Source of the DNA: an uncultured Candidatus Saccharibacteria bacterium
GTDB lineage: Bacteria; Patescibacteriota; Minisyncoccia; Ryanbacterales; 2-02-FULL-48-12
Assembly (NCBI GenBank): GCA_964349275.1
Contig: CAYGFT010000001.1
Span: 20,795 to 66,103, forward strand
Length of the DNA: 45,309 bases
Direction of reading: 5' to 3'
The position numbers and the translations under genes were made by a program. Below the pieces are notes generated by a model, which saw only the letters and a program-made list of their open reading frames with translations, ran no database searches and was not told the DNA's origin. Below, piece after piece: positions 1,477 through 26,604 of the stretch; within the stretch, counting starts at the first letter, position 1, and each line of letters starts with the position of its first letter.

Positions 1477-1478
1477 TC

Positions 1479-3553: not shown

Positions 3554-3578
3554 GCCAGAAATAAGCTATAAAACACTC

Positions 3579-6471: not shown

Positions 6472-7805
6472 TGTTGCAAAGGAGTAGGTTAATTTTGTGG
6501 TGCGCATTGATAGCCGTGGTGATCAGTATGGCGCTTTCTTTTCATTGGCAGTTTCCGCCACGGGTGGATGCGGGTGCGTATGATGCTATCGCCTGGAATT
6601 TTGCGCAGGGACTTGGGTATATAGAGGACGCCGGAAATACAGCACATCCGGAGCTTGATGACGGTATTGTGCGGGTGGGTCCGGGGTATCAATTTTTTCT
6701 GGCAGGTGTGTATACGCTATTCGGTCATCATGTTTGGATTGTCTGGATTTTACAGGCGATATTGCATGCCATATCTGTGCTATTGGTATTTCGTATCGCG
6801 GGCTTGCTATTTCCTGTATATAAGTCGCTCCCGCTTCTTGCCGCTATCCTATTTGGGTTTTCGCCGGATATTCTTTTTATGACGACTATGCTTCTTACGG
6901 AGACGTTATTTTTATGTGTACTATTGGCATCTTTGTATGTGACTCTAGTGTTTTTTAAAAATTCGGGGTGGGGGAGTCTTATTAGTATGGGACTTTTGTG
7001 GGGGAGCGCGATTCTTATACGTCCGGTTGCGCTATTGCCGTTTTTGCTTATTTTGGGGATTTTGTCCGTACGCAAGGAATTTTCCCGGGTGGCGATATTT
7101 GCCGCTTTGGTGATACTTCTTGTCGCGCCCTGGTCTTTCTCCATGTCACATCGCTACGGTGCGTTTATCCTTACTACTACGGCGGGAGGGTATGATCTCT
7201 GGGTGGGTAACAATCCTGATGCAACCGGTGGCTTTGATAAGACCCCCGAGATACAGACATTTCGCAATACGCATCATAGCGTCGAGGCGGATCGAGTGGG
7301 TAAGGAAAAATATTTTGCTTTTATTGGGGAACATCCGATCCAGTTTATTGAGCTACAAGTGCGTAAGACGGCTCTCTATTTTAGCCTTCTGCGTCCGACG
7401 GGGAATTGGCTTGATCTGCAATTTTTTCCGGTGGATCGCGCAATTTTGGCGTTATTCTCGGCCGTCTGGACTGCGGTGTTGTTTGGGTTGGGTATTGCTG
7501 GACTTATTGCTTTGGCAGTATCCTCGGGAGCGGGTTTGCATGCTCGATTTTTTGTTGCTTGTGCCGTACTTCAGCCGATTGCGGTGATACCAATCATTGT
7601 TGCTACGCGTTATAGATATGCGCTCTTCCCGTTCCTAGCTCTTGCGGGGGCCTACATGGTCATGCGTATACGGGAATCGGCGGTATATGATAGGGTAGTG
7701 CGATCCGCTATCATGGGGGCGGGTGTTTTCTTGTTTGTTGCTACCTGTTACGACGTAGCACTGCATGCGGGGGAGATTTGGGCGAAAATCACTACGATAT
7801 TATGA
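6471..7805 (+). CDS. Polytopic GT-C (GT39/ArnT-like) membrane glycosyltransferase
   Basis: Multiple TM segments. The first loop is PRVDAGAYDAIAWNFAQGLGY. TAATG overlap with the upstream gene. Confidence 0.7.
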   Translation: MLQRSRLILWCALIAVVISMALSFHWQFPPRVDAGAYDAIAWNFAQGLGYIEDAGNTAHPELDDGIVRVGPGYQFFLAGVYTLFGHHVWIVWILQAILHAISVLLVFRIAGLLFPVYKSLPLLAAILFGFSPDILFMTTMLLTETLFLCVLLASLYVTLVFFKNSGWGSLISMGLLWGSAILIRPVALLPFLLILGILSVRKEFSRVAIFAALVILLVAPWSFSMSHRYGAFILTTTAGGYDLWVGNNPDATGGFDKTPEIQTFRNTHHSVEADRVGKEKYFAFIGEHPIQFIELQVRKTALYFSLLRPTGNWLDLQFFPVDRAILALFSAVWTAVLFGLGIAGLIALAVSSGAGLHARFFVACAVLQPIAVIPIIVATRYRYALFPFLALAGAYMVMRIRESAVYDRVVRSAIMGAGVFLFVATCYDVALHAGEIWAKITTIL

Positions 7806-8797
7806 TACGTATCTTCTATATTACTCGAGCCAATCTGGGGTTGCGTCGCGCGCATACGGCTAATATCGCAGAAACTGTTAAAGCTTTGGCTCGTCAGGGC
7901 GCTTTTGTGGAAATCATAGGAGGGCGTATCTTATGGGCACTGGTGGCACGCCGGAGAGACTACGATGTTGTATATGTGCGCGATCATCGACTGTTGGTGC
8001 AGGCTTGCGTCGCAAAGCTTCTTTTGGGTAAAAAGGTTGTATACGAAGTACATAGTACACATGGGTTGTTGTTTCTGCGTCGCTTTCTGTTCCGTATTGC
8101 TGATGGGGTAGTATATATCACCCGTCGTCTCAAAGAATATTATGATCCTCAAAAACAAAAACGAGGTGTTGTGGTGCATTCCAGCGGCGCGTATCTCGAG
8201 GATTTTATGATCCAGAAAGTCCGTGAAGATGTGCGCGAGACTCTTGGTTTGCCACGGGATGGGTATCTTGTGCTCTATGCCGGCAGTACGCGATGGTACG
8301 ATATAGAGCTCCTCATGCATGCACTTGCACATTTACCGCAAGATACGTTTCTGGTGCTTGTAGGTGTGAAAGAAGAAGAAATGCGAAGTTTGCGGTCTAC
8401 TATAAAAGAAGAGCGTAGCTCATCGCGCGTTCTCTCCATGGGGCGAGTGCCGAGAGAAAAAATACCACTACATCTTTTTGCCGCGGATGTACTGGTAAAT
8501 CCACTCTCCGCAAGTCTCCCGGGTAGTATTTCTTCTAAGCTGTATGAGTATCTTGCCGCAGGTCGTCCGATCATCTCTTCTCGCGGTGGTGCTAATGATG
8601 AGGTATTGGAAGATGGTAAAAATGCTTTGTTTGCAGATATGTCACCAGAGAGTTTTGCGCAAAAAATAATAGAGATTCGTGAACGTCCGGATTTGGCATT
8701 GCATCTTTCTCGTCAAGCCAGTCTGGATGCGAAGCGGTATACCTGGGATGAGCGTGCCAAAATCATTCTATCCATGATACAAACAATACATGACTGA
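7802..8797 (+). CDS. GT4-type glycosyltransferase
   Basis: EX7E region SSKLYEYLAAGRPIISSRGGANDEVLEDGKNALF. The ATG at 7802 forms an ATGA overlap with the upstream stop. The tracked start at 7778 is in-frame but upstream. Confidence 0.8.
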   Translation: MIRIFYITRANLGLRRAHTANIAETVKALARQGAFVEIIGGRILWALVARRRDYDVVYVRDHRLLVQACVAKLLLGKKVVYEVHSTHGLLFLRRFLFRIADGVVYITRRLKEYYDPQKQKRGVVVHSSGAYLEDFMIQKVREDVRETLGLPRDGYLVLYAGSTRWYDIELLMHALAHLPQDTFLVLVGVKEEEMRSLRSTIKEERSSSRVLSMGRVPREKIPLHLFAADVLVNPLSASLPGSISSKLYEYLAAGRPIISSRGGANDEVLEDGKNALFADMSPESFAQKIIEIRERPDLALHLSRQASLDAKRYTWDERAKIILSMIQTIHD

Positions 8798-9407
8798 ATC
8801 TGCGCATGCATATGGACAATCAAAATATAACAGCCGAACTCGCTGGATGAATTTTTGGCATCAGATAGACGAGGTTGCGCGTCTGGGTGGGAAGCGTGTG
8901 CTGGAGATTGGCAAAGGATCGGGGATCGTCTCGGATCGCCTGCGTGCCATGGGGTACGAGGTGGTCACAGTAGACATTGACCAGAATCTTAAACCGGATA
9001 TTGTAGCTTCAGCTGAACGGCTTCCATTTGCGGATAGGTCATTTGATGTGGTGCTTGCCGCAGAAGTTTTGGAGCATATCCCATTTGAGCGTGTATCTGT
9101 GGCACTAAGTGAAATACGTCGCGTTGCCTCATATGCGGTTATTACCTTGCCGCATGCGGGGTCCGCCATGATTGGGCGGCTACGGGTGCCATGGTTGGGT
9201 GATGTAGAGCTATTCATAAAGATCCCATTTTTTTGGGTGCGTCACTACAATAAATATGGCAATGAGGTTGGGCACTATTGGGAGCTTGGTAAACGCGGAT
9301 TTGCGCGCTGGCGTTTTCGGGCTTTGCTCAAGGAGGCAGGGTTTGTTTTGCAGAAAGAGAAACTATATGCAGATGATTTTATTAGAATATTTTTTGTAGT
9401 ACGATGA
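8790..9407 (+). CDS. Class I SAM-dependent methyltransferase (Methyltransf_11-like)
   Basis: VLEIGKGSG motif I, acidic VVTVD motif II, VVLAAEVLEHIP. It overlaps the upstream stop by 8 nt. Confidence 0.75.
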   Translation: MTESAHAYGQSKYNSRTRWMNFWHQIDEVARLGGKRVLEIGKGSGIVSDRLRAMGYEVVTVDIDQNLKPDIVASAERLPFADRSFDVVLAAEVLEHIPFERVSVALSEIRRVASYAVITLPHAGSAMIGRLRVPWLGDVELFIKIPFFWVRHYNKYGNEVGHYWELGKRGFARWRFRALLKEAGFVLQKEKLYADDFIRIFFVVR

Positions 9408-10255
9408 TGAGTTGGCTTTCCCAAATTTTCTGGAGGGTGATGCTCATAACGGGTCTCAACACTGCATATATGCGTTTTGGACCTCGCCGACTCACTATCC
9501 TCGGATATCACAGCGTTTCTGACCCAAAAAATCAGCGTGAACTCCACGGTGAACTCTATCGGCATCTTTCGGTACCTGCGGATGTATTTGAGCGCGAGAT
9601 GCAATATTTGAAAGATCGTGGCTACACGTTTATCTCGTTTGCGGATCTTGCCGCTATCGAACGCAAAGAGCGTCCGATGCCGCCACGCCCGGTGATGGTA
9701 TATTTTGATGATGGGTACCGGGATAATTTTATAAATGCATATCCGATTTTAAAAAAAATGGAGATTCCCGCAACGCTGTTTATTGCGGTTGATTGTGTAG
9801 AGGGGCGTGGTAATCCCTGGGGAGCAACGGTGAGTGATGTTGCAGGTGTGTTTCTTTCCTGGGATGAAATACGAAACATGAAGGGTGTGTTTTCGCTTGG
9901 TACACATACCATGTCGCATCGTAAACTTGTTGCTTTACTACCGGAGGAGGTGCGGCACGAGCTTGCAGAATCCCGTCGGATTATCGAGGAACGCACCGGG
10001 GAGCCGGTTATTGCAATTTCATATCCCAAGAGCAGATGGAATCTCGAGGTGCAAAAGATTGCAGAAGATTTGGGATTTTCATATATACTTTCGCATGATC
10101 GCGGAGCCAATTACGGCCCCCCATATAAATTTTTAAATAAAATTCCCATAGGACCACGTGATACCTTTGTACTATTTCGAGCCAAGCTGGGAGCGTATTA
10201 TCCGCTCATACGACTATTGCACCGCCTGATTTCTGTGTGGCCGGTAAAAAAATAA
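9404..10255 (+). CDS. Polysaccharide deacetylase (NodB homology domain) with an N-terminal TM helix
   Basis: ILGYHSVS, VMVYFDDGYRDN (the metal-binding DD motif region), LGTHTMSHRKL. ATGA overlap with the upstream gene. Confidence 0.8.
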   Translation: MMSWLSQIFWRVMLITGLNTAYMRFGPRRLTILGYHSVSDPKNQRELHGELYRHLSVPADVFEREMQYLKDRGYTFISFADLAAIERKERPMPPRPVMVYFDDGYRDNFINAYPILKKMEIPATLFIAVDCVEGRGNPWGATVSDVAGVFLSWDEIRNMKGVFSLGTHTMSHRKLVALLPEEVRHELAESRRIIEERTGEPVIAISYPKSRWNLEVQKIAEDLGFSYILSHDRGANYGPPYKFLNKIPIGPRDTFVLFRAKLGAYYPLIRLLHRLISVWPVKK

Positions 10256-10258
10256 TTC

Positions 10259-11014
10259 ATGACTAAGACTTCTGCAAAAACCAACCCCATAGTATATCGC
10301 CGGTATGGCCTACTGACTTCGGCACGAGTGATCTTGGATGATGATCTCTTCTTGGAGATGATCAAACGTCCCCGGCATGCGTATATTGTGGCTATCTCGC
10401 ATCAGGTGTTATCGGTGCCGGATACGATAAAAATAAAGCACAAAAAAACTATCAACATATATCTTGAAGGGAAGTTGGAAGAGGTATTTGCGCATTTCAA
10501 TGATACGGCACGAAATGAGGTGCGCAAAACATTCAAGATGCCGGAGTTTTCTGTCTCGCACAATGATAATAATTGGGGTGTAGTATATGCGCTGTACAAA
10601 AAATTTCGTATTGCAAAGCATCTGGAGCTACGGCCGGTTGCATTTTTACAATCATGCCTTCTTTTCAATGCATATTACAAGGGCGAGCTCATCTCTTCGA
10701 TTACCTGCTACGATGTATTTCCTAATTTGCGCATCCAAAATATATTCTCCAAACTTGATGGTGGAGACAAGGAGCTTCGCAAGATTGTCGGGCATGCTAC
10801 GCGCCGCCTCATGTATGAGATTTGTAAATATGGTAATGAGCGCGGGTATCGTCTCTTGGATCTCGCGTCTGCCAATTTTACCAATCCCGCTAAGGCTGGC
10901 ATCACCGCATTTAAAAGCTCATTTGGGGGCAAGATAGAGGATGAGTATACGTACACCTATCGGAGCCCGCTGGTACGAATGGCGGGCGGTTTATTTTCAT
11001 TTTTGAAACAATAA
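10259..11014 (+). CDS. Putative GNAT-fold acyltransferase, FemAB/CelD-like
   Basis: The C-terminal region RRLMYEICKYGNERGYRLLDLASAN...AGITAFKSSFGG resembles the FemAB-like acetyltransferase domain. The call is weak and by eye only. Confidence 0.4.
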   Translation: MTKTSAKTNPIVYRRYGLLTSARVILDDDLFLEMIKRPRHAYIVAISHQVLSVPDTIKIKHKKTINIYLEGKLEEVFAHFNDTARNEVRKTFKMPEFSVSHNDNNWGVVYALYKKFRIAKHLELRPVAFLQSCLLFNAYYKGELISSITCYDVFPNLRIQNIFSKLDGGDKELRKIVGHATRRLMYEICKYGNERGYRLLDLASANFTNPAKAGITAFKSSFGGKIEDEYTYTYRSPLVRMAGGLFSFLKQ

Positions 11015-11016
11015 TC

Positions 11017-12069
11017 ATGGCTATACTTTTTTTTACCAAGGGGGATAAAACAGTAGCATCCAGCCGTCAGCGGGTGTGGTTGTTGGCGGAGCGTCTTGGG
11101 GCAACATATGGATACACCTATGATATTTTGTTCGATATTCGGTATCCATTTTTTTCTCTATCTCGAAGAAGACTTCAAAAGATTACGGAAGTGGCTACAA
11201 AGATTTTTATGCGCTCCCCAGATACGCTTTTTGTGCACAAATCTCTTTTTTCATGGGATGTGATTGCGTTGATTGTATTGGCAAAATTGGTTTTGCGTAA
11301 AAAGCTCATATATGATTTGGATGATGCCGAGTGGGTGCACTCTGGTGTAAAAACAAGACTCTTAGTTCGTCTCGCGGATGTGGTTTTTTGCGGGTCGCAA
11401 GTGATACAAGAGTGGGTACAAAAATATGCGCGACGGGCAGAGTTCGTACCAACCGTATTGGATGCCGATATATATGCGGTGTATACCATACGGTATGAGC
11501 CGCACGAACCCTATACGATAGGTTGGACAGGCACTGGCATGTCGCATTTTAGAGACGGTCTTTTTGCTATAGTAAAACCTGCTCTGGAGCTTTTAAGCAA
11601 AAGTGGTATGACATTTCGTTTTGTAGTGCTTGGTGCGCAAGGGTACCAGCCGCTCAAGGAGTATTTTAAAAATGTGCCGTTCGAGACTATATGGGTAGAT
11701 GAAGTAAATTGGGCGGATCCACACGCAGTGCCTGCACTTATGCAAACGTATCGGTTTGATATAGGGCTTATGCCGCAAAATGACACCCCGTTTAATCGTG
11801 CAAAGTGCTCATTTAAAGCGATAGAGTATATGGCCTGTGGCATACCGACGATAGCATCTCCTGTAGGGGAGAGCCGTGTTCTTATAGAGGATGGGGTGAA
11901 TGGTTTTTTAACTGACTCTACAAAAGGGTGGTTTGAAAAGATGCAGATGCTCTTGACTCATGAAGATATGCGAGAGGCCATGGGGAAGAGTGCGCAAAAG
12001 ACCATACGAGATCGGTATTCGTATGAGGCGATACTCCCCCGTGTGTATGAGGTTATGAAAAACCTCTAG
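11017..12069 (+). CDS. GT4-type glycosyltransferase
   Basis: EX7E region SFKAIEYMACGIPTIASPVGESRVLIEDGVNGFL. 350 aa. Confidence 0.8.
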   Translation: MAILFFTKGDKTVASSRQRVWLLAERLGATYGYTYDILFDIRYPFFSLSRRRLQKITEVATKIFMRSPDTLFVHKSLFSWDVIALIVLAKLVLRKKLIYDLDDAEWVHSGVKTRLLVRLADVVFCGSQVIQEWVQKYARRAEFVPTVLDADIYAVYTIRYEPHEPYTIGWTGTGMSHFRDGLFAIVKPALELLSKSGMTFRFVVLGAQGYQPLKEYFKNVPFETIWVDEVNWADPHAVPALMQTYRFDIGLMPQNDTPFNRAKCSFKAIEYMACGIPTIASPVGESRVLIEDGVNGFLTDSTKGWFEKMQMLLTHEDMREAMGKSAQKTIRDRYSYEAILPRVYEVMKNL

Positions 12070-12078
12070 TAGCAATAT

Positions 12079-12103
12079 AAAACCCGTCTTGCCAACGAGT
12101 TTT
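12079..12103. terminator. Weak bidirectional hairpin between convergent operons
   Basis: AAAACCCGT-cttgcca-ACGAGTTTT forms a 9-bp stem with one mismatch. It is flanked by an A-run and a T-run, and lies between the stops at 12069 (+) and 12138 (-). Confidence 0.3.
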
Positions 12104-12137
12104 ACTAAGAGTAGTGTGATCCTAAGCAAGAAGCATC

Positions 12138-12815
12138 TTAGTATTCTATAAGTTCTTTACCGGTGATGAGATAGCACTTGGTAATAGAGGGTATTTTTTT
12201 TATTGTTTCCATAAATACATTTGCCTCCATTGGGTCTTTCAGGTGCAGGGAGAAGGCGTACTCGGTTTCTTGGGCAGTTTTTTTGGCGTGGAGGAGTTCA
12301 TTGTACTGTGTGTATTTTTCAAAAGCAGTATTCAAAACATCAGGCGAGAGCCCTGATCCTCCCTCAATAGTCAGGAGGAACCCGGTGCGTTCTCCCGAGC
12401 CAAAGTTTGCGCGATAGAGGATAAGTATAATTGCGGATATGACGATGGTAGCGATCGCGGCAATGGTATAGTTGTTGGTACCCACGGCGACACCCACGGT
12501 GAGAGAAAAGAAGAGAAATGCGACATCACGCGTCTCTTTGATAATAGTACGGAAGCGAATCAGCGAGAATGCACCCAGCAGTGCGAATGCACCGATGAGA
12601 TTATTCTGCACAATCATCATGACGACCGCGGCCAAGGGAGCAAGCATGGCGATCGTAAATGCAAACGATTGCGAGTAGGAGAGTCCCTTGTGGGTGCGGC
12701 GCCAAAGCCAGACGATGGCCATACCGAGCGCAAAAGCAAACACGATATTGAAAAGAATAATCGCGGAGCTCGTCTCGGTCTGGGCAAGGTTGTAGAAGTT
12801 GGTAAGTGGGTTCAT
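12138..12815 (-). CDS. DUF4956-family membrane protein
   Basis: 4-5 TM segments followed by a soluble C-terminal domain. The signature LIRFRTIIKETRDVAFLFFSL is shared with the paralog at 28135..28794. It lies directly downstream of the VTC gene. Confidence 0.75.
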   Translation of the reverse strand: MNPLTNFYNLAQTETSSAIILFNIVFAFALGMAIVWLWRRTHKGLSYSQSFAFTIAMLAPLAAVVMMIVQNNLIGAFALLGAFSLIRFRTIIKETRDVAFLFFSLTVGVAVGTNNYTIAAIATIVISAIILILYRANFGSGERTGFLLTIEGGSGLSPDVLNTAFEKYTQYNELLHAKKTAQETEYAFSLHLKDPMEANVFMETIKKIPSITKCYLITGKELIEY

Positions 12816-12821
12816 GGTGTT

Positions 12822-13547
12822 TTAGTGGGGGAGCGGATTATGCCTATAAAATGTATCTATGCTGTGACCATACTTGGAAAAGCTCTCCCGGCGGATATCA
12901 AGTTTTTTTATCATACTATGGAACCAAGCAGGCAGTCTAGTTGCAAATTTCACTTCCATGATAATTTGCTCGGTAATGCGATCGGCAAAAGGCTGTGGGG
13001 AGAGGTCGCTGGCGCGGGCGCATCGGATATCTTCGTCAAAAGTAATGCGCAGCGTCTCATCGTCTTCCTGGAGAAACGGGGTGCGTTTGTAGCGTACATG
13101 GGCGGTAGGGCGTCGTCCCTCCTGAAGCATATACCAGACAAACTCTGCAATGGCGGCCTTATCCGCCTCTGGACGCGAATGGTTGCCCAGCAAAGAGGCG
13201 TATGATTGACGGGAGAGTACCTGCCACTCGTCCCGGGAGAGGAGTGCTCGCGTCTTTTGAAATGCCATATCGTGTTTTTTCTTTGTCTCAATCCAAACGG
13301 GTGACTCCCCATCCCAATAGTCGGCATAAATACGTGCTCGTAGTTTTTTACGTTCCAAAAACCCGCCGCTTTTATCATAATAATCCCCAAGTTGTGGTGT
13401 ATCGAAATAAAGGCTTGTTACGATATACCAGCCTTGCGTGCCTGCTGCAGGGTCTCGCTCCATGAGTTGCGCCACAATGTCTCGCGCCGCGTGAGCTTGT
13501 GCGGAGTTCAGTACATATTTAAATTCAAATCGTGTTGTTGGTTTCAT
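12822..13547 (-). CDS. VTC-domain protein (polyphosphate polymerase-like triphosphate tunnel metalloenzyme/CYTH fold)
   Basis: N-terminal RFEFKYVL (ExK motif). Alternating charged beta-strand motifs LRARIY, WIETKKK, RITFDED, IMEVKF. About 240 aa, as is typical for bacterial VTC proteins. ATGA overlap with CotH. Confidence 0.8.
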   Translation of the reverse strand: MKPTTRFEFKYVLNSAQAHAARDIVAQLMERDPAAGTQGWYIVTSLYFDTPQLGDYYDKSGGFLERKKLRARIYADYWDGESPVWIETKKKHDMAFQKTRALLSRDEWQVLSRQSYASLLGNHSRPEADKAAIAEFVWYMLQEGRRPTAHVRYKRTPFLQEDDETLRITFDEDIRCARASDLSPQPFADRITEQIIMEVKFATRLPAWFHSMIKKLDIRRESFSKYGHSIDTFYRHNPLPH

Positions 13548-15841
13548 GGGGTAAATTCGTAGGATGAATATTCATCTTTTTTTATTTCTTCGCCATTATC
13601 TTTAAATATCACACCAGTGATGCGCGCATGCGCTCCGCCAAAAATCTGTTTTTTACGATAGAGGGAGATACCGATACTATTTTGTACAATAGCACCTCCT
13701 TGGATAACTGCATCTGCCTGGTCTTTGACTGCTATACCAATGGAACAGTTGGAAATAGTATTGTGCTCGATATGCGGTCGTGATCGCTCGCCTATACTTA
13801 TGCCTTTGTCGCTACAACCATACACGGTGTTGTCTCGTATAATTGCTTTGGCAAAACTAATGTCCATAGCGTCTCCCAAGAGATTTGGGTCGGTCGCCCT
13901 GCCAATGGGCGTCTGGAAGACGTTGCGTTCAATAACAGTATCATTGTAGTCAATATCAATTGCATCTGAAAATGTATTACGAAACACCGAGTCGCTAATG
14001 ACGGCTTTGCCGTATTTGATGTTGAGCGCATCATCGTCGTAGGTGTCAGAGAATGTGGCATGTCGTATTTCTGCGGTGTTGTCGCCATGGAGTGCGAGCA
14101 TGCCGGTGGAGGTGACGCCATTTATGGTGCCGCCCGATCCGCCGCTTATAGAGATCCAGATGAATGATGATGATTCGTGTGTATCAAGGACGAGAAATGT
14201 GCCAAATGGTTTGTCGGGAGAAAGCGCTTTTATAGTAATGCGAGCTTGAGGAGTTCCTATAGCTTCCACGGGACTATAAGAAAGGATGCTTACTTTTTGA
14301 TCCAGAAGTACGGTGGTACCGGGGCGTATGATCAGACGAAGATTTGCGGGTATGATGACGGTATTTTTTAAGATTTGGATATTCTTGATGCCAATGGTAC
14401 GAGCGTCTATTTTATGAAATTGTGGGTTTCGGGCAAGAAATGTATCTATGTCGAGCAGGAGATCCGAGAGGTGCTGAAACGCCCCGGGGAATGTGAACGT
14501 GGTCGTTTCTTTGGATGGGATACGTACTTCATTTTCTGGGAGTGTATGGGATGCTTTTTGGAAGTTTGCCTGGATGGCTGTTCGGTAGAGGCGCATCTCG
14601 CTTATCAACGAGAGGTTGTTGTCGAGTTTTACATTATCGCGGAAAAAATCACCTTGATATATCTTGACTAAATTGTCATAGAATGCGAGATCGCCTTTGA
14701 GATTTTGCTCATGTACGGTGTAATTTTTTAGCAGGGCGTTGCGGGCATCGCGGAACTCCGGAATAGAGAACACTCTGCGTGCAAGTGTCTGACTTTCGGT
14801 GTACGCCGCATCGGTGGGTGAGATATCAAATCCGGTATCCCAGCTTATAGGCTCAAATTTACCGGTAGAGGCATTGAAGAATAGCGTGCTATTGTTTTGA
14901 TCGTCTTGATGTGAGCTATTTGCAAGAATGCTTACCACGCTCCAAGCATAGAGTTTTGGAAGATCGATAATATGCGGCGCGAGTTGCTGAAATTCTTTGT
15001 CATTGGTATTTTGTAGGATCTCGATAAGGGTGGTTATCTCATCATGTACTCCACCCTCGATATTTTTTTGATTTTCACTTTTCCAAAGGACCGCCCCTTC
15101 TTTGGTAAATACGGAAAGTTTGCGGAAGTTTGGATGGGTGTCGTCAATGGTAAATAGACTACCAGCGGTGGGGAGTTCATGTCGTTCCACCCAGGAGGGG
15201 GACCAGGATTCATTGGCGAGATACACACCGGCATCCCGCATGTTGATTTTAAGGCGCACGAGTCGCATCTCGGGTGCGAGTACTCCAAGCTTTTGGGCGC
15301 GGTAGATGTTTAGTAGTTCGGCTACCTCGCCACGGTCACTGGGGATGATGAGATTTAACCCTTCCATGCCGTCAAAGAAGTTATTCTGTTTGAAGTTGAT
15401 GCGCCAGGATCGTTTGAGGCTGTTCCAGTGATTGGCATTGGTGCCGCGATAACGCACCTCTACGCGGTCCTGATAGTCACCGGCAAGAAATGTGCCCTTG
15501 ACAGAGATGCGATTGAGTTCGCTCAATTGCCCGCCAATGGGGTCGGTAGGCAGTGAGGACTCTAGCAACTTTAAATCCTCTTCATCAATAATAAGACTGT
15601 AGGTAGGGAGATCGCTTTCGAGGAACCAATAAGGGAGGAAAGCTATGTCAGGGAGTTTTCGAAGTGAATGATAGCTGTGCAGGAAATATTGCACCAGGCT
15701 ATTGCTGATAAGCTGGCGTTTCATCGGTGTAGGAATGTGTTGAGAAAACAAAGAAGCGGCTACAATAAGAGCCGCGAGCATACCGATCGCTATCTTTACT
15801 GTTCGGGCGCCCACAGGTGACGGGTGCTTTAATGAAGCCAT
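13544..15841 (-). CDS. CotH-family kinase-like protein with an N-terminal membrane anchor and a C-terminal right-handed parallel beta-helix domain
   Basis: TM segment VKIAIGMLAALIVAASLF. CotH-like core VEVRYRGTNANHWNSLKRSWRINF. The last ~265 aa contain PbH1-type repeats (DAIDIDYN, DAMDISF, DKGISIGE, NCSIGIAV, NSIGISL). Confidence 0.8.
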   Translation of the reverse strand: MASLKHPSPVGARTVKIAIGMLAALIVAASLFSQHIPTPMKRQLISNSLVQYFLHSYHSLRKLPDIAFLPYWFLESDLPTYSLIIDEEDLKLLESSLPTDPIGGQLSELNRISVKGTFLAGDYQDRVEVRYRGTNANHWNSLKRSWRINFKQNNFFDGMEGLNLIIPSDRGEVAELLNIYRAQKLGVLAPEMRLVRLKINMRDAGVYLANESWSPSWVERHELPTAGSLFTIDDTHPNFRKLSVFTKEGAVLWKSENQKNIEGGVHDEITTLIEILQNTNDKEFQQLAPHIIDLPKLYAWSVVSILANSSHQDDQNNSTLFFNASTGKFEPISWDTGFDISPTDAAYTESQTLARRVFSIPEFRDARNALLKNYTVHEQNLKGDLAFYDNLVKIYQGDFFRDNVKLDNNLSLISEMRLYRTAIQANFQKASHTLPENEVRIPSKETTTFTFPGAFQHLSDLLLDIDTFLARNPQFHKIDARTIGIKNIQILKNTVIIPANLRLIIRPGTTVLLDQKVSILSYSPVEAIGTPQARITIKALSPDKPFGTFLVLDTHESSSFIWISISGGSGGTINGVTSTGMLALHGDNTAEIRHATFSDTYDDDALNIKYGKAVISDSVFRNTFSDAIDIDYNDTVIERNVFQTPIGRATDPNLLGDAMDISFAKAIIRDNTVYGCSDKGISIGERSRPHIEHNTISNCSIGIAVKDQADAVIQGGAIVQNSIGISLYRKKQIFGGAHARITGVIFKDNGEEIKKDEYSSYEFTP

Positions 15842-15849
15842 ATTAGGTG

Positions 15850-15878
15850 ATTGTAGGGGCTAGCTTTTGGTACGTCAA
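15850..15878 (-). promoter_or_regulatory. Sigma70-like promoter for the CotH-VTC-DUF4956 operon, positioned for a leaderless or near-leaderless mRNA
   Basis: The minus strand reads TTGACG, a 17-nt spacer, TACAAT, 8 nt (cacctaat), then ATG at 15841. There is no Shine-Dalgarno sequence. Confidence 0.45.
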
Positions 15879-16035
15879 TGCGCCTTGACTCTATCTATAA
15901 CGTTTTTTTTCGTGGTTTGTTTTTTGGGTATAGGTCATTTATGCTAGAGCTATTGTTATATTTTTTGCGGTATATATGGGACGCGGGTCTCTGTATTTGT
16001 AGCTTATTAACGTGTGCTAGTGGTCTTGCCTGTTT

Positions 16036-17853
16036 ATGCATATTCTAGGAATTTCAGCATTTTATCACGATAGCGCCGCTTGTTTGGTACATGATGGAAA
16101 GATTGTCGCGGCTGCTCAAGAGGAGCGGTTTACTCGCAAAAAACATGATCAGGCATTTCCTAAGCGTGCGGTTGCATACTGTCTCCGTGAGGGGAAGATT
16201 ACTATGGACGATGTCGCGCTTGTGGTGTTTTATGATAAGCCTTTTCTGAAGTTTGAGCGGATTCTCGAGACTTATTTGGCGTATGCTCCGGTTGGCATCA
16301 CTTCATTTGTAAGAGCGATGCCGCTTTGGATAAAGGAAAAACTTTGGATGAAAGAGATTGTGGCGCGCGAGCTTGGATACAAGGGAAAAATGATTTTTCC
16401 CGAACATCATGAGTCGCATGCGGCTTCAGCTTTCTTTGCTTCTCCGTTTGCACATGCCGCTTTCCTTACCATGGATGGAGTCGGAGAGTGGGCTACTACC
16501 AGCTATGGCGTAGGTCATGGTAATAAAATACAGATACATGCAGATATACAATTTCCGCACTCTTTGGGACTCTTGTATTCGGCATTTACGTATTATACGG
16601 GGTTTAAAGTAAATTCCGGTGAATACAAAGTTATGGGTCTTGCGCCGTATGGAGAGCCAAAATACAAGGATTTGATACTCCGTGAACTTATAGATCTCAA
16701 AGAGGATGGATCATTCCATCTAAATATGGATTACTTTGGGTATGCATCCGGGTTGACCATGACTAATGATAAGTTTAATAAACTTTTTGGTGGCAAACCG
16801 CGTAAACCTGAGTCTCCCCTTACACAACGGGAAATGGATCTCGCGCGTTCTCTCCAGGAAGTGACGGAGGAGGTGGTGCTCCGTGTTGCGCGGCATATTC
16901 ATAAAGAAACGGGAGAAAAATATCTGTGTCTTGCAGGAGGGGTGGCACTTAACTGTGTTGCCAACGGCAGATTATTACGCGAAGGACCATTTGATGATAT
17001 TTGGATTCAGCCGGCCTCGGGGGATGCAGGAGGGGCTCTGGGTGCTGCATTGTTTGGGTGGTACCAGTATTCAGGGAACATGCGTGCGGTTGACAATACG
17101 CATGATATTATGCAGGGGTCATATCTCGGGCCCGCATATACGCCGGAGGACATCCGAAGCTTTCTTGATGGAGCAGGTGCATCTTATCGGAAAGTTCCGT
17201 ATGATGAGCTAGCGCGAGACGTGGCAAGACTGCTGGCGGACCAAAAAGTAGTCGGGTGGTTTCAGGGTCGCATGGAATTTGGTCCGCGTGCCTTAGGGAA
17301 CCGCTCTATTATAGGGGACGCACGGTCGCCTGTTATGCAGGAGATGATGAATGTGAAGATAAAATTTCGGGAATCATTTCGGCCCTTCGCTCCTTCGGTG
17401 TTGGTGGAGCGGATGTCAGATTATTTTTTGCTTGATCGCCCGAGTCCCTACATGTTGCTTGTGGCTTGTGTCAGGAAAGAGCGTCAAAAAACAATGACCA
17501 AAGACCAGGATCAGCTTTTTGGGCTTAAAAAGCTCCATGTGCTTCGCTCGGATATTCCTGCAGTTACGCATATAGACTATTCTGCGCGTATTCAAAGCGT
17601 AGATAAAAATACCAATCCTCGATATCATGCACTAATATCCGAGTTTGAAAAGATCACCGGATATGGAATTATTATCAACACGTCTTTCAATGTGCGCGGC
17701 GAACCGATAGTGTGTGCTCCGGAAGATGCCTACCGCTGTTTTATGCGTACGGATATGGATTATTTAATTTTAGGAGATTATATGCTCGCCAAGACTGATC
17801 AAAAACCGCTCGCAAAGGATGTGACATGGCAGAAGGAATTTGTATTAGACTAA
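16036..17853 (+). CDS. Carbamoyltransferase (NodU/CmcH family)
   Basis: N-terminal MHILGISAFYHDSAACLV...AAQEERFTRKKHD. The 605-aa length is typical. The C-terminal domain has FGPRALGNRSI and NTSFNVRGEPIVC. Confidence 0.9.
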   Translation: MHILGISAFYHDSAACLVHDGKIVAAAQEERFTRKKHDQAFPKRAVAYCLREGKITMDDVALVVFYDKPFLKFERILETYLAYAPVGITSFVRAMPLWIKEKLWMKEIVARELGYKGKMIFPEHHESHAASAFFASPFAHAAFLTMDGVGEWATTSYGVGHGNKIQIHADIQFPHSLGLLYSAFTYYTGFKVNSGEYKVMGLAPYGEPKYKDLILRELIDLKEDGSFHLNMDYFGYASGLTMTNDKFNKLFGGKPRKPESPLTQREMDLARSLQEVTEEVVLRVARHIHKETGEKYLCLAGGVALNCVANGRLLREGPFDDIWIQPASGDAGGALGAALFGWYQYSGNMRAVDNTHDIMQGSYLGPAYTPEDIRSFLDGAGASYRKVPYDELARDVARLLADQKVVGWFQGRMEFGPRALGNRSIIGDARSPVMQEMMNVKIKFRESFRPFAPSVLVERMSDYFLLDRPSPYMLLVACVRKERQKTMTKDQDQLFGLKKLHVLRSDIPAVTHIDYSARIQSVDKNTNPRYHALISEFEKITGYGIIINTSFNVRGEPIVCAPEDAYRCFMRTDMDYLILGDYMLAKTDQKPLAKDVTWQKEFVLD

Positions 17854-17857
17854 TACC

Positions 17858-18271
17858 ATGTTTGACGAGATAAAAAATATTGCGAGTGGGAAAAAAGAAC
17901 TTCGTGATTTTGGGTTTGTGGTCGGTGGCGTTCTTGTTGCCGTAAGTATGGTTTTTTGGTGGCTCGAGCGAGAGTCGCATCGCGTCTGGGGTAGTGTGGG
18001 GATCGTTCTGGCAGGAGCAGGTTTGTTTGCGCCATTTATCTTGAAACCGTTGCAAAAAGTCTGGATGGCGTTTGCGGTAGTGATGGGCTGGGTAATGACA
18101 CGGTTTATTTTAGGTGCTTTGTATTATGGAGTATTTACGGTTGTACATGGTATCGGGTGGATTGTAGGAAAGGAGTTTCTTGATATGCGGTATAAGGACG
18201 GGAGTTCTACCTATTGGGTAAAAAGAGCCTCAAGGGATGTCCCCGTATCGGAATATGAACGCCAGTTTTAG
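17858..18271 (+). CDS. SxtJ-family small membrane protein
   Basis: 137 aa with 3-4 TM segments. It has LRDFGFVVGG near the N-terminus and a ...YWVKR...YERQF tail, like SxtJ-type proteins. The start is 4 nt after the carbamoyltransferase stop. Confidence 0.65.
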   Translation: MFDEIKNIASGKKELRDFGFVVGGVLVAVSMVFWWLERESHRVWGSVGIVLAGAGLFAPFILKPLQKVWMAFAVVMGWVMTRFILGALYYGVFTVVHGIGWIVGKEFLDMRYKDGSSTYWVKRASRDVPVSEYERQF

Positions 18272-18281
18272 TGGGGCGCCT

Positions 18282-18440
18282 TTAAAAGAGGGTATAGATA
18301 AAGGGTGCGACTACAGACCCTTGACTCAAGACAAGTAATGTCCCAAAAAGTCCTAGAAAAATAACGATAGGCAGAAGCCACCACTTTTTTCGAATTTTGA
18401 GAAATTCCCAAAGCTCTTTTATCAAAGAGAGTTTTGACAT
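18282..18440 (-). CDS. DUF5989/SxtK-like small membrane protein (52 aa). It is below the cutoff of the ORF track.
   Basis: Hand translation of the minus strand gives MSKLSLIKELWEFLKIRKKWWLLPIVIFLGLFGTLLVLSQGSVVAPFIYTLF*. The pattern ELWEFL..RKKWWL.P....L.....L......APFIYTLF is the family hallmark. The start is 8 nt after the SGNH gene stop. Confidence 0.6.
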   Translation of the reverse strand: MSKLSLIKELWEFLKIRKKWWLLPIVIFLGLFGTLLVLSQGSVVAPFIYTLF

Positions 18441-18448
18441 GGGTGTTC

Positions 18449-19594
18449 TTATTGAATAAGATTGTTTCTTACTATTATAGTATAGTAGTTTTCTGAAAGT
18501 TTTTCTAAGCCAGGTTGCGTATAGTGGACGATGTCGGTAAAGTATTCTTTTTTTCCATGAAGAAATATAGCATTGTCCGCCAGTAGGGTAAGCGTTTCTT
18601 TTGCGGTTATGCGGATAAGGTCATTGAAGCGATGGTGGTGGGCTATAAATTCTTCAGCTTTTGGGTAGAGTACAGCATCGCCATATTTTGTGTTGTATCG
18701 AAACGGTTGCTCTTGGTATTCTTTGAATTCTGCAAGCGGTTGGGTACCCAATATGGTTTGGATGTTGTGTATTTTTGCGATAGCAATTAACGTCCGCAGA
18801 TTCCTTGTGTATACAGACTCGACTTCGGGCGTGAGGGCCATTCCATACGATCGCACCGGGAAGCGGGCAGGATTTTTTTCTTGTTGGCGCCTATCCATCT
18901 TATCCTGGAGTACTTCGATCTTGTTACTGACAAACCAGTAAAAACTTGACCATTGGAAGAGAGCATTGGGGGCGGTGAAATAAGAAAGGTATTTGTTGTA
19001 TGGAATAAATGCTTGGTTGGAGTATTTGTTTGCATAATCCAGGGTAAAGTTTTTGAAGTATCCGGCGGTCAGGTCATTTACATTTTCAGAAATTATCAAA
19101 AGGTCCGCCTGCCATGACACAACATCTAGAGCCAAGAGAATAATCATGTGCGGAGTGGCATATGAGTCGTGACCCACATTGATGACCTCTATCTTTTTTC
19201 CCGGGTATGTATTTTGTAGTTTTTCCTGGAGTATTTTCGGATAGTGGCTACCCTCTATAAAATTTTGCGTGGTGGATCCTCCCAAGGCGACGATCCGGTA
19301 TGTATTTGGTTCTTTCTCAAGGGGATAGAGCTCTTTGTGTGTGCTTACTATATATTTTTTCGCATCTTTTTCGGTGTATAGGTCGTTGCCAAAAGTTCGG
19401 AATGGTCGTATTGGTTCTCGTAAGGGGCGCAAAAGTATATTGCGATGATTAGAGAAAAAACCGTACCCGTGTTTCCAATCAAACGTACGGACACCGAGTT
19501 CTCCAAGCAAAAATATGATTGCAAGGGATCCTACGACAAGTGCACTGTTTTGGATAATAGTTTTTGCGGGCATGGATTCAATATGTATATGCAT
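18449..19594 (-). CDS. SGNH/GDSL-type hydrolase/acyltransferase with an N-terminal TM anchor
   Basis: TM segment NSALVVGSLAIIFLLG. Block I is IVALGGSTTQ, block III is IISENVNDL, block V is TDIVHYTQPG. The true start may be Met8 (19573). Confidence 0.7.
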   Translation of the reverse strand: MHIHIESMPAKTIIQNSALVVGSLAIIFLLGELGVRTFDWKHGYGFFSNHRNILLRPLREPIRPFRTFGNDLYTEKDAKKYIVSTHKELYPLEKEPNTYRIVALGGSTTQNFIEGSHYPKILQEKLQNTYPGKKIEVINVGHDSYATPHMIILLALDVVSWQADLLIISENVNDLTAGYFKNFTLDYANKYSNQAFIPYNKYLSYFTAPNALFQWSSFYWFVSNKIEVLQDKMDRRQQEKNPARFPVRSYGMALTPEVESVYTRNLRTLIAIAKIHNIQTILGTQPLAEFKEYQEQPFRYNTKYGDAVLYPKAEEFIAHHHRFNDLIRITAKETLTLLADNAIFLHGKKEYFTDIVHYTQPGLEKLSENYYTIIVRNNLIQ

Positions 19595-19622
19595 TCTATG
19601 TGGATAGGCTCTCTGTCGTCAA
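19593..19622 (-). promoter_or_regulatory. Putative promoter for the SGNH-DUF5989 operon
   Basis: The minus strand reads TTGACG, an 18-nt spacer, then TAGAAT. The -10 box overlaps the first ATG (19594), which would favour the ATG at 19573 as the start. Confidence 0.3.
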
Positions 19623-19623
19623 A

Positions 19624-19651
19624 TAAAAAAGACCTTCGATAGAGAAGGTCT
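19624..19651 (-). terminator. Rho-independent terminator after the DUF218 gene
   Basis: The minus strand reads AGACCTTC-tctatc-GAAGGTCT, an 8-bp perfect stem with a 6-nt loop, followed by TTTTTTA. It lies 10 nt downstream of the stop at 19661. Confidence 0.6.
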
Positions 19652-19660
19652 CGACATTAT

Positions 19661-20272
19661 TTAGCGTTTTTCCAGGTATTCTAGTATTTTTGCAAGGGGA
19701 GCGATGCTCCCATTGGCTTCATACTGCCGAAGTTTTTTTATTTCCTCCTCGAGTAGCGTAATACGCGTCCCCTGTTGCTTGCCCTGGGAGTGGACAACTT
19801 TTTCAAACCACGAAAGTGGAGACCCTGGGGCGCTGTAGACTTTGAGTTCTGGGTACTCGCGCAGTGCGGCAGTTATCATTGATGCAAATGCCCGTGGTTG
19901 GTGTGCTGGCCACGATATAGTGGTCAGCATCTTATATCCTTGTTGTTTTGCGTACCGGGCGATGACTACCGCCTCTGTCAGTGTGTTGTGGTTTTCTCCA
20001 TCCAGGGTCCACGGTACTTCCACGATGTTTTTCGGGTCTACTTGGAGATCCTGCAGTTGTTGGCGCCAAACTTTCGGACCCGCATAACCATTGTTTTGTC
20101 CTGTTGCCCCAAGGATGAGTAGATGACCACAATATTGCTCGGCTACGCCTCTCCGTAGTATGGAGAGTGCATTTCTAGAATCAGAGGCGGTTACTAAAAA
20201 CGCAGCGCATGAGGATTCTTGTGTAGGACGGGCATCCGCAAGCGATAGAATTGAGAATATTTCCCAATCCAT
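19661..20272 (-). CDS. DUF218 (YdcF/ElyC-like) domain protein
   Basis: LLILGATGQNNGY..., NTLTEA and AHQPRAF resemble DUF218 motifs. I chose the ATG at 20272 because AAGGAG lies 7 nt upstream of it. Confidence 0.6.
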   Translation of the reverse strand: MDWEIFSILSLADARPTQESSCAAFLVTASDSRNALSILRRGVAEQYCGHLLILGATGQNNGYAGPKVWRQQLQDLQVDPKNIVEVPWTLDGENHNTLTEAVVIARYAKQQGYKMLTTISWPAHQPRAFASMITAALREYPELKVYSAPGSPLSWFEKVVHSQGKQQGTRITLLEEEIKKLRQYEANGSIAPLAKILEYLEKR

Positions 20273-20447
20273 CGAAAAGCTCCTTTCTTGCTCGTAAAAG
20301 TATTCTGTACGCACGGTACAGTATTTTTCTTTATTTGTCAATATAACGTATAATATAGTCAACAGTAAGGAGCTCCTTGCCACGTAGACATTTCTCCATT
20401 AGTTATGGACTCGAAGAGGAGACGCATCTCCTCTGTGGGTTTGACGC

Positions 20448-20476
20448 AAGACAATACTTCCAGTATTGTATATAAT
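20448..20476 (+). promoter_or_regulatory. Putative promoter for the UXS-like gene, with an operator-like palindrome in the spacer
   Basis: AAGACA, a 17-nt spacer, then TATAAT (20471-20476). The inverted repeat ACAATACT-tcc-AGTATTGT (20451-20469) lies between the -35 and -10 boxes. Confidence 0.4.
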
Positions 20477-20553
20477 ATTACACATACTCATCATGACAGA
20501 TGATGGGTGGTGGTCCCACGATGTGGGTATTTTATTTCTAACTCTAGGTGTAT

Positions 20554-21621
20554 ATGTTAAAACACCCTCTCATTGAAGAAGACATACAAAATATAGTTGA
20601 CGGCATCGGTGATGAAGCAGTGGCGCTCGAGGGCAAGACTCTTCTTATTAGTGGGGGGAGCGGGTTTTTGGGGTCCTACTGGATAGCCGTTATTCATGCT
20701 CTCAACAAAAAATTTAAAAATCCTTGCCGTGTCATATCGTTTGATAACTATGTGACAGCCCCACGCGAGAATCTTATTCACACTATCAAGAATAGTACTC
20801 TCGTTTCTTTGGAGGGCGATGTTGCAAAGCCCCTTCCAAACATTGAAGGTCCGGTTGATTATATCGTTCATGCGGCAGGTATTGCCTCGCCGTTTTATTA
20901 TAGAAAGTATCCTTTAGAGACTATTGAGGCTGCCGTTACTGGTTCAAAGAATTTTCTTGAGCTGGCGCGCCTTAAGAAGCCCAAGGGTTTTTTATTTTTC
21001 AGCTCTAGTGAAATTTATGGAGACCCTGACTCGGCGCACATACCGACCCCAGAAACATATAAAGGAAATGTCTCCTGTGTAGGACCGCGGTCTTGCTACG
21101 ATGAGTCAAAACGTTTGAGCGAGACTTTGAGTCTTGTGTATCATGAACTTTTTAACATACCGATAAAAATTGTTCGTCCATTCAATATCTATGGTCCCGG
21201 CATGAAAATAGACGACTACCGCGTCATCCCTTCATTTGCAAACCGCGGATTACATGATGAGCCGCTCCCGGTACATGGCAATGGTAACCAGACACGTACA
21301 TTCTGTTATATTAGCGATGCTATGGTAGGTTTTTTTAAAGTTTTGATTTCGGGTGCTCCAGGGGGGATTTACAATATTGGTACGGAAAAAGATGAGGTGT
21401 CTATGCAACAGCTTGGTCAAATGGTGGTTGATATTATCGGTAAGGGGTCGGTAAAGTTAATAGAGTATCCTGACTCTTATCCGGCTGATGAGCCGACAAG
21501 ACGTTGTCCTGATATCTCCAAAGCTCGTACGGAGCTTGCCTACAGTCCCGTCGTGGATCTGCGTAGAGGTATAGAACGTACTATGCAATGGTACCGAGAT
21601 GCGTATTCTCTTGGGGGGTGA
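20554..21621 (+). CDS. UDP-glucuronate decarboxylase (UDP-xylose synthase)-like NAD-dependent SDR
   Basis: LLISGGSGFLGSY, CYDESKRLSETL (compare the UXS CYDEGKR motif), RPFNIYGPGM, GNQTRTFCYISD. AGGTG lies 5 nt upstream of the ATG at 20554. The tracked start at 20548 is GTG. Confidence 0.8.
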   Translation: MLKHPLIEEDIQNIVDGIGDEAVALEGKTLLISGGSGFLGSYWIAVIHALNKKFKNPCRVISFDNYVTAPRENLIHTIKNSTLVSLEGDVAKPLPNIEGPVDYIVHAAGIASPFYYRKYPLETIEAAVTGSKNFLELARLKKPKGFLFFSSSEIYGDPDSAHIPTPETYKGNVSCVGPRSCYDESKRLSETLSLVYHELFNIPIKIVRPFNIYGPGMKIDDYRVIPSFANRGLHDEPLPVHGNGNQTRTFCYISDAMVGFFKVLISGAPGGIYNIGTEKDEVSMQQLGQMVVDIIGKGSVKLIEYPDSYPADEPTRRCPDISKARTELAYSPVVDLRRGIERTMQWYRDAYSLGG

Positions 21622-21623
21622 AA

Positions 21624-22361
21624 CTACACTTGCTTAAAAGAGGATAGTTTCTGTACAACCAGCGTATTGTAATGGATTCGCCAGTGTATAAGATTTTTGA
21701 GGTATGTTCGTGATGTTCTAAAGAGTGCCCGTGCTATAAATGGTGTCCCCCGTTCGCGTGTTCTCCATTCGACGGGGATTTCCACGGTTTTTCCTCCAAG
21801 GTGCCTTGTTTTTATTATTATTTCGCTGTCAATAAAAAAATCTTTTGACTCCAGTTTTAGCTTTCTAAGGAAGTCTTTTCGAACGACTTTAGGTTGTCCG
21901 TCTATGTCCCACCCAGGTACGGAAAAAAGAATTTTTACGAGAATGTTAAAAATTCCGACGAGAACAAGTCGTAGTATTCCCTCAGTTCTATTTGTACGTC
22001 GAGGTTTTATCACGTCTGCCCCGGTTGTGCTTATTGTTTCATAAGCTTTTATAATATCTTTGGGGGGAGTTTGTCCGTCTGATACGACAACGGCAATATA
22101 TTCATACTGAGCCTGTTCCATTCCGGCTATTACCGCTCTGCCATATCCTTTCTCTTTCAGCAGAAGCGGGCGAATCTTTGAGTTTTTCTTCGATAGGTCA
22201 ACAAGTTTTTCTTCGGTCCCATCGGTTGATCCATTGCTGACACAAATTATTTCGTAAGGTATCTCCGCCTGCGTAAGAGCCGCATCGATCTCGCTCGTTA
22301 CGGGTTCAACGCTTTCTTTTTCGTTGTACATTGCCATTACTATGGATAAAGGGTCTTTCAT
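21624..22361 (-). CDS. GT2 glycosyltransferase, DPM1-like, with one internal TM segment
   Basis: LSIVMAMYNEKESV, EIICVSNGSTDGT, GYGRAVIAGM. The hydrophobic segment is ILRLVLVGIFNILVKILF. The ATG is at 22361; the tracked start at 22367 is TTG. Confidence 0.75.
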   Translation of the reverse strand: MKDPLSIVMAMYNEKESVEPVTSEIDAALTQAEIPYEIICVSNGSTDGTEEKLVDLSKKNSKIRPLLLKEKGYGRAVIAGMEQAQYEYIAVVVSDGQTPPKDIIKAYETISTTGADVIKPRRTNRTEGILRLVLVGIFNILVKILFSVPGWDIDGQPKVVRKDFLRKLKLESKDFFIDSEIIIKTRHLGGKTVEIPVEWRTRERGTPFIARALFRTSRTYLKNLIHWRIHYNTLVVQKLSSFKQV

Positions 22362-22376
22362 GATCAATTATTATAA

Positions 22377-24685: not shown

Positions 24686-24736
24686 ATAGGATTTTGTATC
24701 ATACTCTATCAGGGAAGACAAGGCGTATGTTCCCCA

Positions 24737-26569: not shown

Positions 26570-26575
26570 GGCTTG

Positions 26576-26604
26576 AATATACTGTATCGTATTATTTTGA
26601 GCAA
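26576..26604 (-). promoter_or_regulatory. Weak promoter-like element upstream of 26569
   Basis: The minus strand reads TTGCTC, a 17-nt spacer, TATATT, 6 nt, then ATG. There is no Shine-Dalgarno sequence. Confidence 0.25.

Follow-up and report, generated by a model that had tools for sequence, protein, structure and literature searches.

How phosphoryl donors could be supplied outside the bacterial membrane is an open problem, and the locus described here makes the question directly testable, since it links a putative polymerase, a membrane partner and a predicted ecto-enzyme. The stretch of DNA that we analyzed (the window, 45,309 nucleotides [nt] of contig CAYGFT010000001.1) comes from an uncultured bacterium deposited as Candidatus Saccharibacteria and placed by the GTDB in the Ryanbacterales (Patescibacteriota). 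Its minus strand encodes a CotH-like protein of 765 amino acids (aa) (13544..15841), a stand-alone soluble VTC protein of the Vtc4 triphosphate tunnel type (12822..13547, 241 aa) and a DUF4956 membrane protein (12138..12815, 225 aa). This trio is most likely a phosphate-handling accessory module for a surface glycopolymer. The trio itself has already been described and is no longer new as a gene set: cotH, a polyphosphate polymerase gene and DUF4956, with or without DUF4832, form an accessory group beside Gram-positive pel operons (Whitfield et al. 2020, bioRxiv 10.1101/768473). What is new in this instance is the Patescibacteria host, a glycan locus other than Pel, a CotH with a beta-helix fusion and a His-Gln active site, and an additional CotH-DUF4956 pair that has no VTC.

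A first-pass annotation of the window had proposed a translationally coupled operon of these three families, and both proposals held. The three open reading frames (ORFs) are contiguous on one strand, the arrangement by which the accessory module is recognized; the TGA of the CotH gene overlaps the ATG of the VTC gene (ATGA), and the DUF4956 ATG follows the VTC stop after 6 nt. In hidden Markov model (HMM) searches, CotH, VTC and DUF4956 all scored above the Pfam thresholds; no NCBIfam model covers VTC, DUF4956 or these CotHs. The closest relatives of the three proteins were found in Candidatus Ryanbacteria and other Patescibacteria, and public contigs encode a protein identical to the window DUF4956, with the gene order unchanged.

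Catalytic residues of the VTC protein and its membrane partner

PPK1 and PPK2 are the enzymes credited with polyphosphate synthesis in bacteria, and VTC is regarded as confined to eukaryotes, so that a bacterial Vtc4-type enzyme, if active, would be a new polyphosphate synthase. The VTC protein of the window matched PF09359 with 129.9 bits over the full length of the profile (positions 2 to 234 of 235) and carries the RFEFKY motif quoted in the annotation at residues 6 to 11. It had been described as soluble and of about 240 aa, and hydropathy analysis indeed found no hydrophobic segment in its 241 residues; neither an SPX domain nor a fused three-helix membrane domain was detected by Pfam or hydropathy. 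A profile built from 22 VTC homologues matched the catalytic domain of yeast Vtc4 (3G3Q) with an E value of 1.9e-12.

The triphosphate- and Mn-binding residues of Vtc4 that are required for polyphosphate synthesis are K200, R264, R266, K281, Y359, R361, E426, S457 and K458, the last of which separates active Vtc4 from the inactive Vtc2 and Vtc3 (bioRxiv 10.1101/2023.01.27.525886). With the numbering offset checked at E426 and K458, their equivalents in the window are, in the same order, K10, R70, R72, K89, Y153, R155, E198, S224 and K225. All nine positions, the basic residues of the tunnel among them, were invariant in the 22 homologues, and the counterpart of K458 is a lysine (K225). Because the isolated central domain of Vtc4 makes polyphosphate alone (the Vtc4 cryo-electron microscopy [cryo-EM] paper), a stand-alone bacterial VTC could be competent.

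The product of the third gene matched PF16316 with 46.1 bits (cut-off, 30.6), contains the quoted motif LIRFRTIIKETRD at residues 85 to 97 and has several hydrophobic segments by hydropathy, in agreement with the multispanning membrane protein that had been expected. An AlphaFold2 (AF2) model with a predicted local distance difference test (pLDDT) score of 77.8 consists of five hydrophobic helices, preceded by an amphipathic helix at the N terminus and followed by a beta-alpha-beta-beta-alpha-beta domain at the C terminus. Foldseek matches were confined to this last domain and pointed to ACT and ribosomal-S6-type folds (E values of about 3e-4 to 3e-3), and searches of solved structures with the DUF4956 sequence and profile returned nothing meaningful. 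The positive-inside rule predicts an external N terminus and an internal ACT-like domain. In the alignment, the invariant residues are T41, H42, S46, R87, R89, K93, T95, D97 and a C-terminal Glu-Tyr; they cluster in the predicted cytoplasmic loops and tail, including the basic loop IRFRxxxKETRD. Glu-Tyr-COOH ends 23 of 23 DUF4956 proteins, both copies encoded in the window included (12138..12143 and 28135..28140, minus strand). All 23 also matched PF02308 (MgtC) below its cut-off (best E value, 2e-5; window copy, 0.05), one homologue (P0220) carries both PF16316 and MgtC domains, and the JGI (Joint Genome Institute) calls many proteins of the family YhiD. The DUF4956 protein of Streptococcus intermedius had likewise been assigned MgtC-like membrane helices and an ACT domain (PMC12345266). 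Judging from these sub-threshold matches, DUF4956 is probably an MgtC-superfamily membrane protein.

A protein of this kind could also be part of a regulator. VTC and the MgtC-like DUF4956 might sense or buffer cytoplasmic phosphate or energy and tune the synthesis or export of the glycopolymer, with no translocation and with CotH acting independently outside. The MgtC matches in every member examined fit such a role, as does the ACT/ferredoxin-like C-terminal domain, which is typical of small-ligand sensors. In S. intermedius, deletion of DUF4956 raised Pel levels, like the loss of a brake (PMC12345266), and two-component system genes adjoin VTC-DUF4956 on an Enterococcus faecalis plasmid (L045 10626..12645) and in Acetoanaerobium (L048 6408..7637). 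However, a pure sensor needs no K458-type catalysis, whereas the full Vtc4 polymerase residue set is kept, and in different phyla both genes remain in tight translational coupling and constant order with the gene for an extracytoplasmic CotH. We regard a purely regulatory function as unlikely.

The CotH-like protein and its variant active site

The product of the first gene would be the outward-facing member of the module, and it combines an N-terminal membrane anchor, a kinase-like domain and a C-terminal beta-helix. Residues 14 to 32 (15746..15802, minus strand) form its sole hydrophobic segment, with a Kyte-Doolittle peak of 2.17; K5, R13 and K16 lie at its N-terminal end, as in a signal anchor. 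The annotation had predicted a membrane-anchored, extracytoplasmic CotH, and the N-terminal anchor is consistent with this orientation; a hydrophobic anchor is likewise found in 143 of 151 representatives of the CotH clade. The kinase-like core (residues 129 to 368; 14738..15457, minus strand) matched PF08757 with 74.1 bits (cut-off, 23.8) and the Bacillus cereus CotH structure 5JD9 with an E value of 5e-10 when searched as a single sequence and 1.6e-25 when the clade profile was used.

Residues 585 to 728 (13658..14089, minus strand) correspond to a right-handed parallel beta-helix, with matches to PF13229 (Beta_helix, 62.6 bits), PF05048 (NosD) and the TIGR03804 repeat. Its invariant columns (D603, D604, D626, D629, D631, D657, D660, D678, K679, E685, K706 and D707) fall on successive coils. 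This half of the protein, a beta-helix of a putative carbohydrate-binding or carbohydrate-modifying type, had no sequence match in the PDB. A structure model of CotH computed from four sequences reached a pLDDT of only 50.2 and was discarded.

Does the kinase-like core keep the residues of a kinase? In Bacillus subtilis CotH, D228 is the catalytic Asp (the D228Q mutant is kinase-dead) and D251 is the metal-binding Asp; we mapped both onto B. cereus NF-D-GFVHN...PW-D by their 23-residue spacing. In the window, the catalytic loop is the variant H311-Q312-D-D-Q-N-N317 (14891..14911, minus strand), in which His311-Gln312 occupies the position of the catalytic Asp, while the catalytic-loop Asn (N317) and the metal-binding Asp (D335) are kept. 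The same His-Gln (S-x-H-Q) was found in both CotHs of the window and in all 41 CotHs of the Patescibacteria loci, with Asp in none of the 41, and N-x-D was kept in four VTC-linked CotHs from outside Patescibacteria, none of them from a Pel locus. A word-indexed homologue search had given 2 matches and was replaced by the sequences of neighboring genes together with an exhaustive search of representatives, which yielded 1,577 CotH relatives. Among the 151 best cluster representatives of the clade, all named members of which are Patescibacteria, His was present in 133, Gln in 102, Asn in 147 and the metal-binding Asp in 123; none had Asp at the catalytic column.

The kinase assignment made in the annotation thus stood as to family, Asn and metal-binding Asp and failed at the catalytic Asp, and because this residue is replaced, Bacillus-type kinase activity cannot be assumed for the CotH of the window. 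Since His, Gln, Asn and Asp are conserved across the 151 representatives, the site appears to be under selection and not in decay. Such a remodelled, strongly conserved site argues for a probably active enzyme with altered chemistry and against a decayed pseudokinase, and the loss of Asp together with the conserved His would be at least compatible with a donor other than ATP. An ordinary ATP-dependent Ser/Thr protein kinase, acting on envelope or regulatory proteins with VTC and DUF4956 as mere neighbors, would account for the homology to B. cereus CotH and for the retained Asn and metal-binding Asp. It accords poorly, however, with the missing Asp, given that the equivalent B. subtilis D228Q is inactive, with the predicted extracellular location of the domain, for which no source of ATP is known, and with a gene order relative to VTC and DUF4956 that is far from random (see below). 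We consider it highly improbable. The His-Gln replacement marks a large, previously undescribed CotH subfamily of at least 150 clusters at 50% identity, a candidate for non-canonical chemistry on a kinase fold.

Linkage across genomes and the surrounding glycan locus

To what extent do the three genes travel together? Our survey was anchored on DUF4956, with one genome per species, and comprised 35 loci scored with HMMs built in this analysis; because the peptide scan patterns were clade-specific, all 35 are from Patescibacteria and the survey is a within-clade one. VTC lay directly upstream of DUF4956 in 32 of the 35, with a median gap of 12 nt, CotH was found within 10 kb of DUF4956 in 27, and the order CotH, VTC, DUF4956 was seen in 24; seven loci had two tandem CotH genes. 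On the assumption that a 1-Mb genome has about three CotH genes, a rough binomial estimate of the CotH enrichment gave P < 1e-17, and chance adjacency of the trio was rejected on these statistics. The surrounding genes invariably pointed to glycan synthesis (glycosyltransferases, PMT_2 GT-C enzymes, flippase, carbamoyltransferase), and where CotH was lacking, VTC-DUF4956 still lay between GT2 and PMT-type genes.

Beyond Patescibacteria, breadth was assessed from six plasmid-database loci of Firmicutes and Actinomycetota (Pseudobutyrivibrio, Planococcus, E. faecalis, Nonomuraea, Paenibacillus and Acetoanaerobium) and from the literature. The CotH HMM trained on Patescibacteria missed annotated Firmicutes CotHs, and Pfam was used for those loci instead. 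VTC was followed by DUF4956 in all six, and CotH occurred within 10 kb in four, so that the co-occurrence on which the annotation had staked its interpretation extends well outside this genome. At the CotH position, the other two carry a Cthe_2159 beta-helix carbohydrate-binding protein (Paenibacillus, L047 9458..11356) and a phospholipase D (PLD)/cardiolipin-synthase-like protein (Acetoanaerobium, L048 9486..11042). Because the pair persists where CotH is absent, VTC-DUF4956 is the core, with CotH as a frequent third member. On the Planococcus plasmid (L044 5389..12824), the genes are VTC, DUF4956, CotH, a hypothetical protein of about 690 aa, a HEAT-repeat protein and a glycosyltransferase, an order that matches the one reported for Clostridium perfringens NELoc-2 and represents a second recurrent context of the trio besides Pel loci.

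The trio is also visible in C. perfringens NELoc-2, and in S. intermedius it corresponds to SIR_1594/1593/1592, where deletion of the CotH or the DUF4956 gene changes the Pel level and reduces aggregation (mBio 2025, PMC12345266). The same authors reported not finding synteny of the trio outside Pel loci (PMC12345266); it is present in this window and in the plasmid loci L043 to L046.

The window encodes a second CotH-DUF4956 pair. The second CotH-like protein (28800..30182, minus strand; 460 aa) has no beta-helix and carries the loop F-H-Q-G-N-I-A-N, with His-Gln as in the first. The second DUF4956 (28135..28794, minus strand; 219 aa) starts 5 nt after it, with no VTC gene between them; its PF16316 score of 30.6 bits is at the cut-off, and it keeps every family-invariant residue. 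The pair belongs to an operon with a Wzx-type flippase gene directly upstream (30186..31490) and a methyltransferase gene (27544..28131), and it is conserved in a related Ryanbacteria genome (L001 to L003).

These arrangements bear on another explanation, in which polyphosphate is itself the exported end product, an envelope or matrix polyanion for cation binding or cohesion, and CotH with its beta-helix binds or organizes the glycan or the polyphosphate, or serves as an adhesin. Fungal CotH proteins are surface invasins. VTC-DUF4956 loci without CotH, the non-catalytic beta-helix protein that takes its place in Paenibacillus and the fact that the Patescibacteria clade has lost the canonical catalytic Asp all agree with this explanation. 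However, conservation of the His, Gln, Asn and metal-binding Asp over 151 representatives is unexpected for a binder, and the VTC-less pair suggests a direct relationship between CotH and DUF4956. To us, polyphosphate as the end product is a doubtful explanation.

The glycan-locus position proposed for the trio was borne out by Pfam scans, which place it in a surface-glycan locus of >40 kb that fills the rest of the window. Its genes encode many GT2 and GT4 glycosyltransferases, four PMT_2 (GT-C) enzymes, a Wzx-type flippase, sugar-nucleotide enzymes, methyltransferases, a deacetylase, a carbamoyltransferase and an FkbH/carrier protein/MBOAT set. The trio is a self-contained unit, as the annotation had it, because it is bounded by a convergent glycosyltransferase gene (11017..12069, plus strand) and a divergent carbamoyltransferase gene (16036..17853, plus strand).

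The promoter attributed to the unit fared less well. The element TTGACG-17 nt-TACAAT is present (15850..15878, minus strand) and, with 10 of 12 positions matched, scores highest of the sites there, but the region has 7 such sites against a shuffle expectation of 6.8, so that the promoter is plausible and not established. As the -10 hexamer TACAAT ends 8 nt upstream of the CotH start codon, in a stretch that lacks a Shine-Dalgarno sequence (15841..15878, minus strand), the CotH mRNA would be nearly leaderless. One public gene call places the CotH start 20 codons further in (745 aa, L049).

Several other features of the locus were recorded. The PMT_2 enzymes, which depend on polyprenyl-phosphate sugars, are encoded by four genes of the window (5017..7805, 33230..34900 and 43556..44953, plus strand), and genes of this family also lie next to VTC-DUF4956 in the Patescibacteria loci without CotH (L009, L012, L016 and L025). 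A run of genes at 35849..43549 (plus strand) encodes a phosphopantetheinyl transferase, a 139-aa ORF, a short-chain dehydrogenase, an FkbH-like loader (37719..39476), an 83-aa ORF that may be a carrier protein (39485..39736), an MBOAT protein (40248..41681), a 326-aa ORF without assigned family and a weak DUF1574-like protein. By analogy, it looks like a carrier-protein-dependent O-acylation system for a surface polymer, with a logic similar to Dlt or Alg acylation. At 10259..11014 (plus strand), a 251-aa ORF has no Pfam family and only a faint FemAB-like match (E = 0.011); it keeps its position between a deacetylase and a GT1 gene in L001 to L003 and L049. Across the whole window (1..45309), GC skew was positive in nearly all 1-kb bins regardless of gene orientation and the cumulative skew rose near-monotonically, which places the window within one replichore; skew in these bins did not point to any recent insertion of foreign DNA near the trio.

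Proposed function and comparison with known systems

Within a phosphate-handling accessory module, the three proteins could work as follows. VTC would make a phosphoanhydride product at the membrane, most likely short or long polyphosphate from nucleoside triphosphates. DUF4956 would be the membrane receptor of VTC and would probably hand over the VTC product, or a phosphoryl group, to the external side. On that side, the CotH-like ecto-enzyme, which its beta-helix would keep bound to the polymer, would transfer phosphate onto a surface glycan or glycoprotein by a chemistry different from that of Bacillus CotH, possibly through the conserved His. Coupling of polyphosphate export to a CotH ecto-phosphotransferase is plausible and unproven, and we put forward the full mechanism, from VTC polyphosphate by way of DUF4956 to outward CotH phosphotransfer, tentatively, as a serious possibility that falls somewhat short of being probable. 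The boldest version would be a third bacterial polyphosphate route in Patescibacteria and monoderms, in which a stand-alone Vtc4-type polymerase on an MgtC-like conduit exports phosphoanhydride energy and a His-variant CotH uses polyphosphate instead of ATP, possibly by way of phospho-His, to (poly)phosphorylate a surface glycopolymer; we think it quite improbable.

Several points weigh against the mechanism. DUF4956 had no similarity to the Vtc1-type channel that sequence or profile could detect, and MgtC proteins are, to our knowledge, not established transporters, for which reasons a conduit role is something that we infer. The conserved VTC residues do not prove polymerase activity, because triphosphate tunnel metalloenzymes catalyze several different reactions, and the missing Asp of CotH could mean that there is no phosphotransfer. 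VTC-DUF4956 occurs without CotH (L009, L011, L012, L016, L047 and L048) and CotH-DUF4956 without VTC, in the window (28135..30182) and in its relative, so the three parts are not strictly interdependent. The VTC deletion in S. intermedius has no reported phenotype (PMC12345266), and our literature search found no biochemical report on any bacterial VTC, DUF4956 or non-spore CotH protein, so the earlier statement that the bacterial trio has no demonstrated function is still accurate, the genetics of S. intermedius aside.

The module nevertheless matters beyond this genome. It accompanies exopolysaccharide or biofilm loci of pathogens (Streptococcus, C. perfringens NELoc-2 and Enterococcus plasmids), and an important role at the cell surface is implied by the fact that the very small genomes of Patescibacteria keep up to two copies.

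Four known systems can be set beside it. The Gram-positive Pel module has the same three contiguous families in an exopolysaccharide locus and a CotH predicted to be secreted or outward-facing. The window differs in its Patescibacteria host, in a CotH fused to a beta-helix and not to FN3, in the His-Gln that replaces the catalytic Asp and in the extra VTC-less CotH-DUF4956 pair; Pfam scans of most window ORFs of at least 150 aa detected neither pelDEA(DA)FG nor DUF4832. With Bacillus CotH (5JD9/5JDA), the CotH of the window shares a homologous atypical kinase fold and the conserved catalytic-loop Asn and metal-binding Asp; it differs in the His-Gln, the membrane anchor, the predicted extracytoplasmic location and the C-terminal beta-helix, and its host does not form spores.

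MgtC/SapB/YhiD proteins share with the predicted DUF4956 structure a set of five membrane helices and, C-terminal to it, an ACT-like domain in the cytoplasm. DUF4956, however, is a separate Pfam family with its own motif (GAF..F..IRFR...K.T.D) and the C-terminal Glu-Tyr, and it is linked to VTC, unlike MgtC/SapB/YhiD with their Mg2+/PhoP regulons. Finally, the eukaryotic VTC complex (Vtc4, Vtc3 or Vtc2, and Vtc1) is a coupled polymerase-translocase, whereas the candidate bacterial system lacks SPX and a fused membrane domain and has a five-helix MgtC-like partner in place of the three-helix Vtc1/DUF202 type that forms a pentameric channel. Both have the homologous catalytic tunnel domain with all nine residues, and in both this domain is coupled, here genetically, to a membrane protein with conserved basic residues on its cytoplasmic side, which in DUF4956 are reminiscent of the basic residues arranged in rings at the Vtc channel mouth (the Vtc4 cryo-EM paper).

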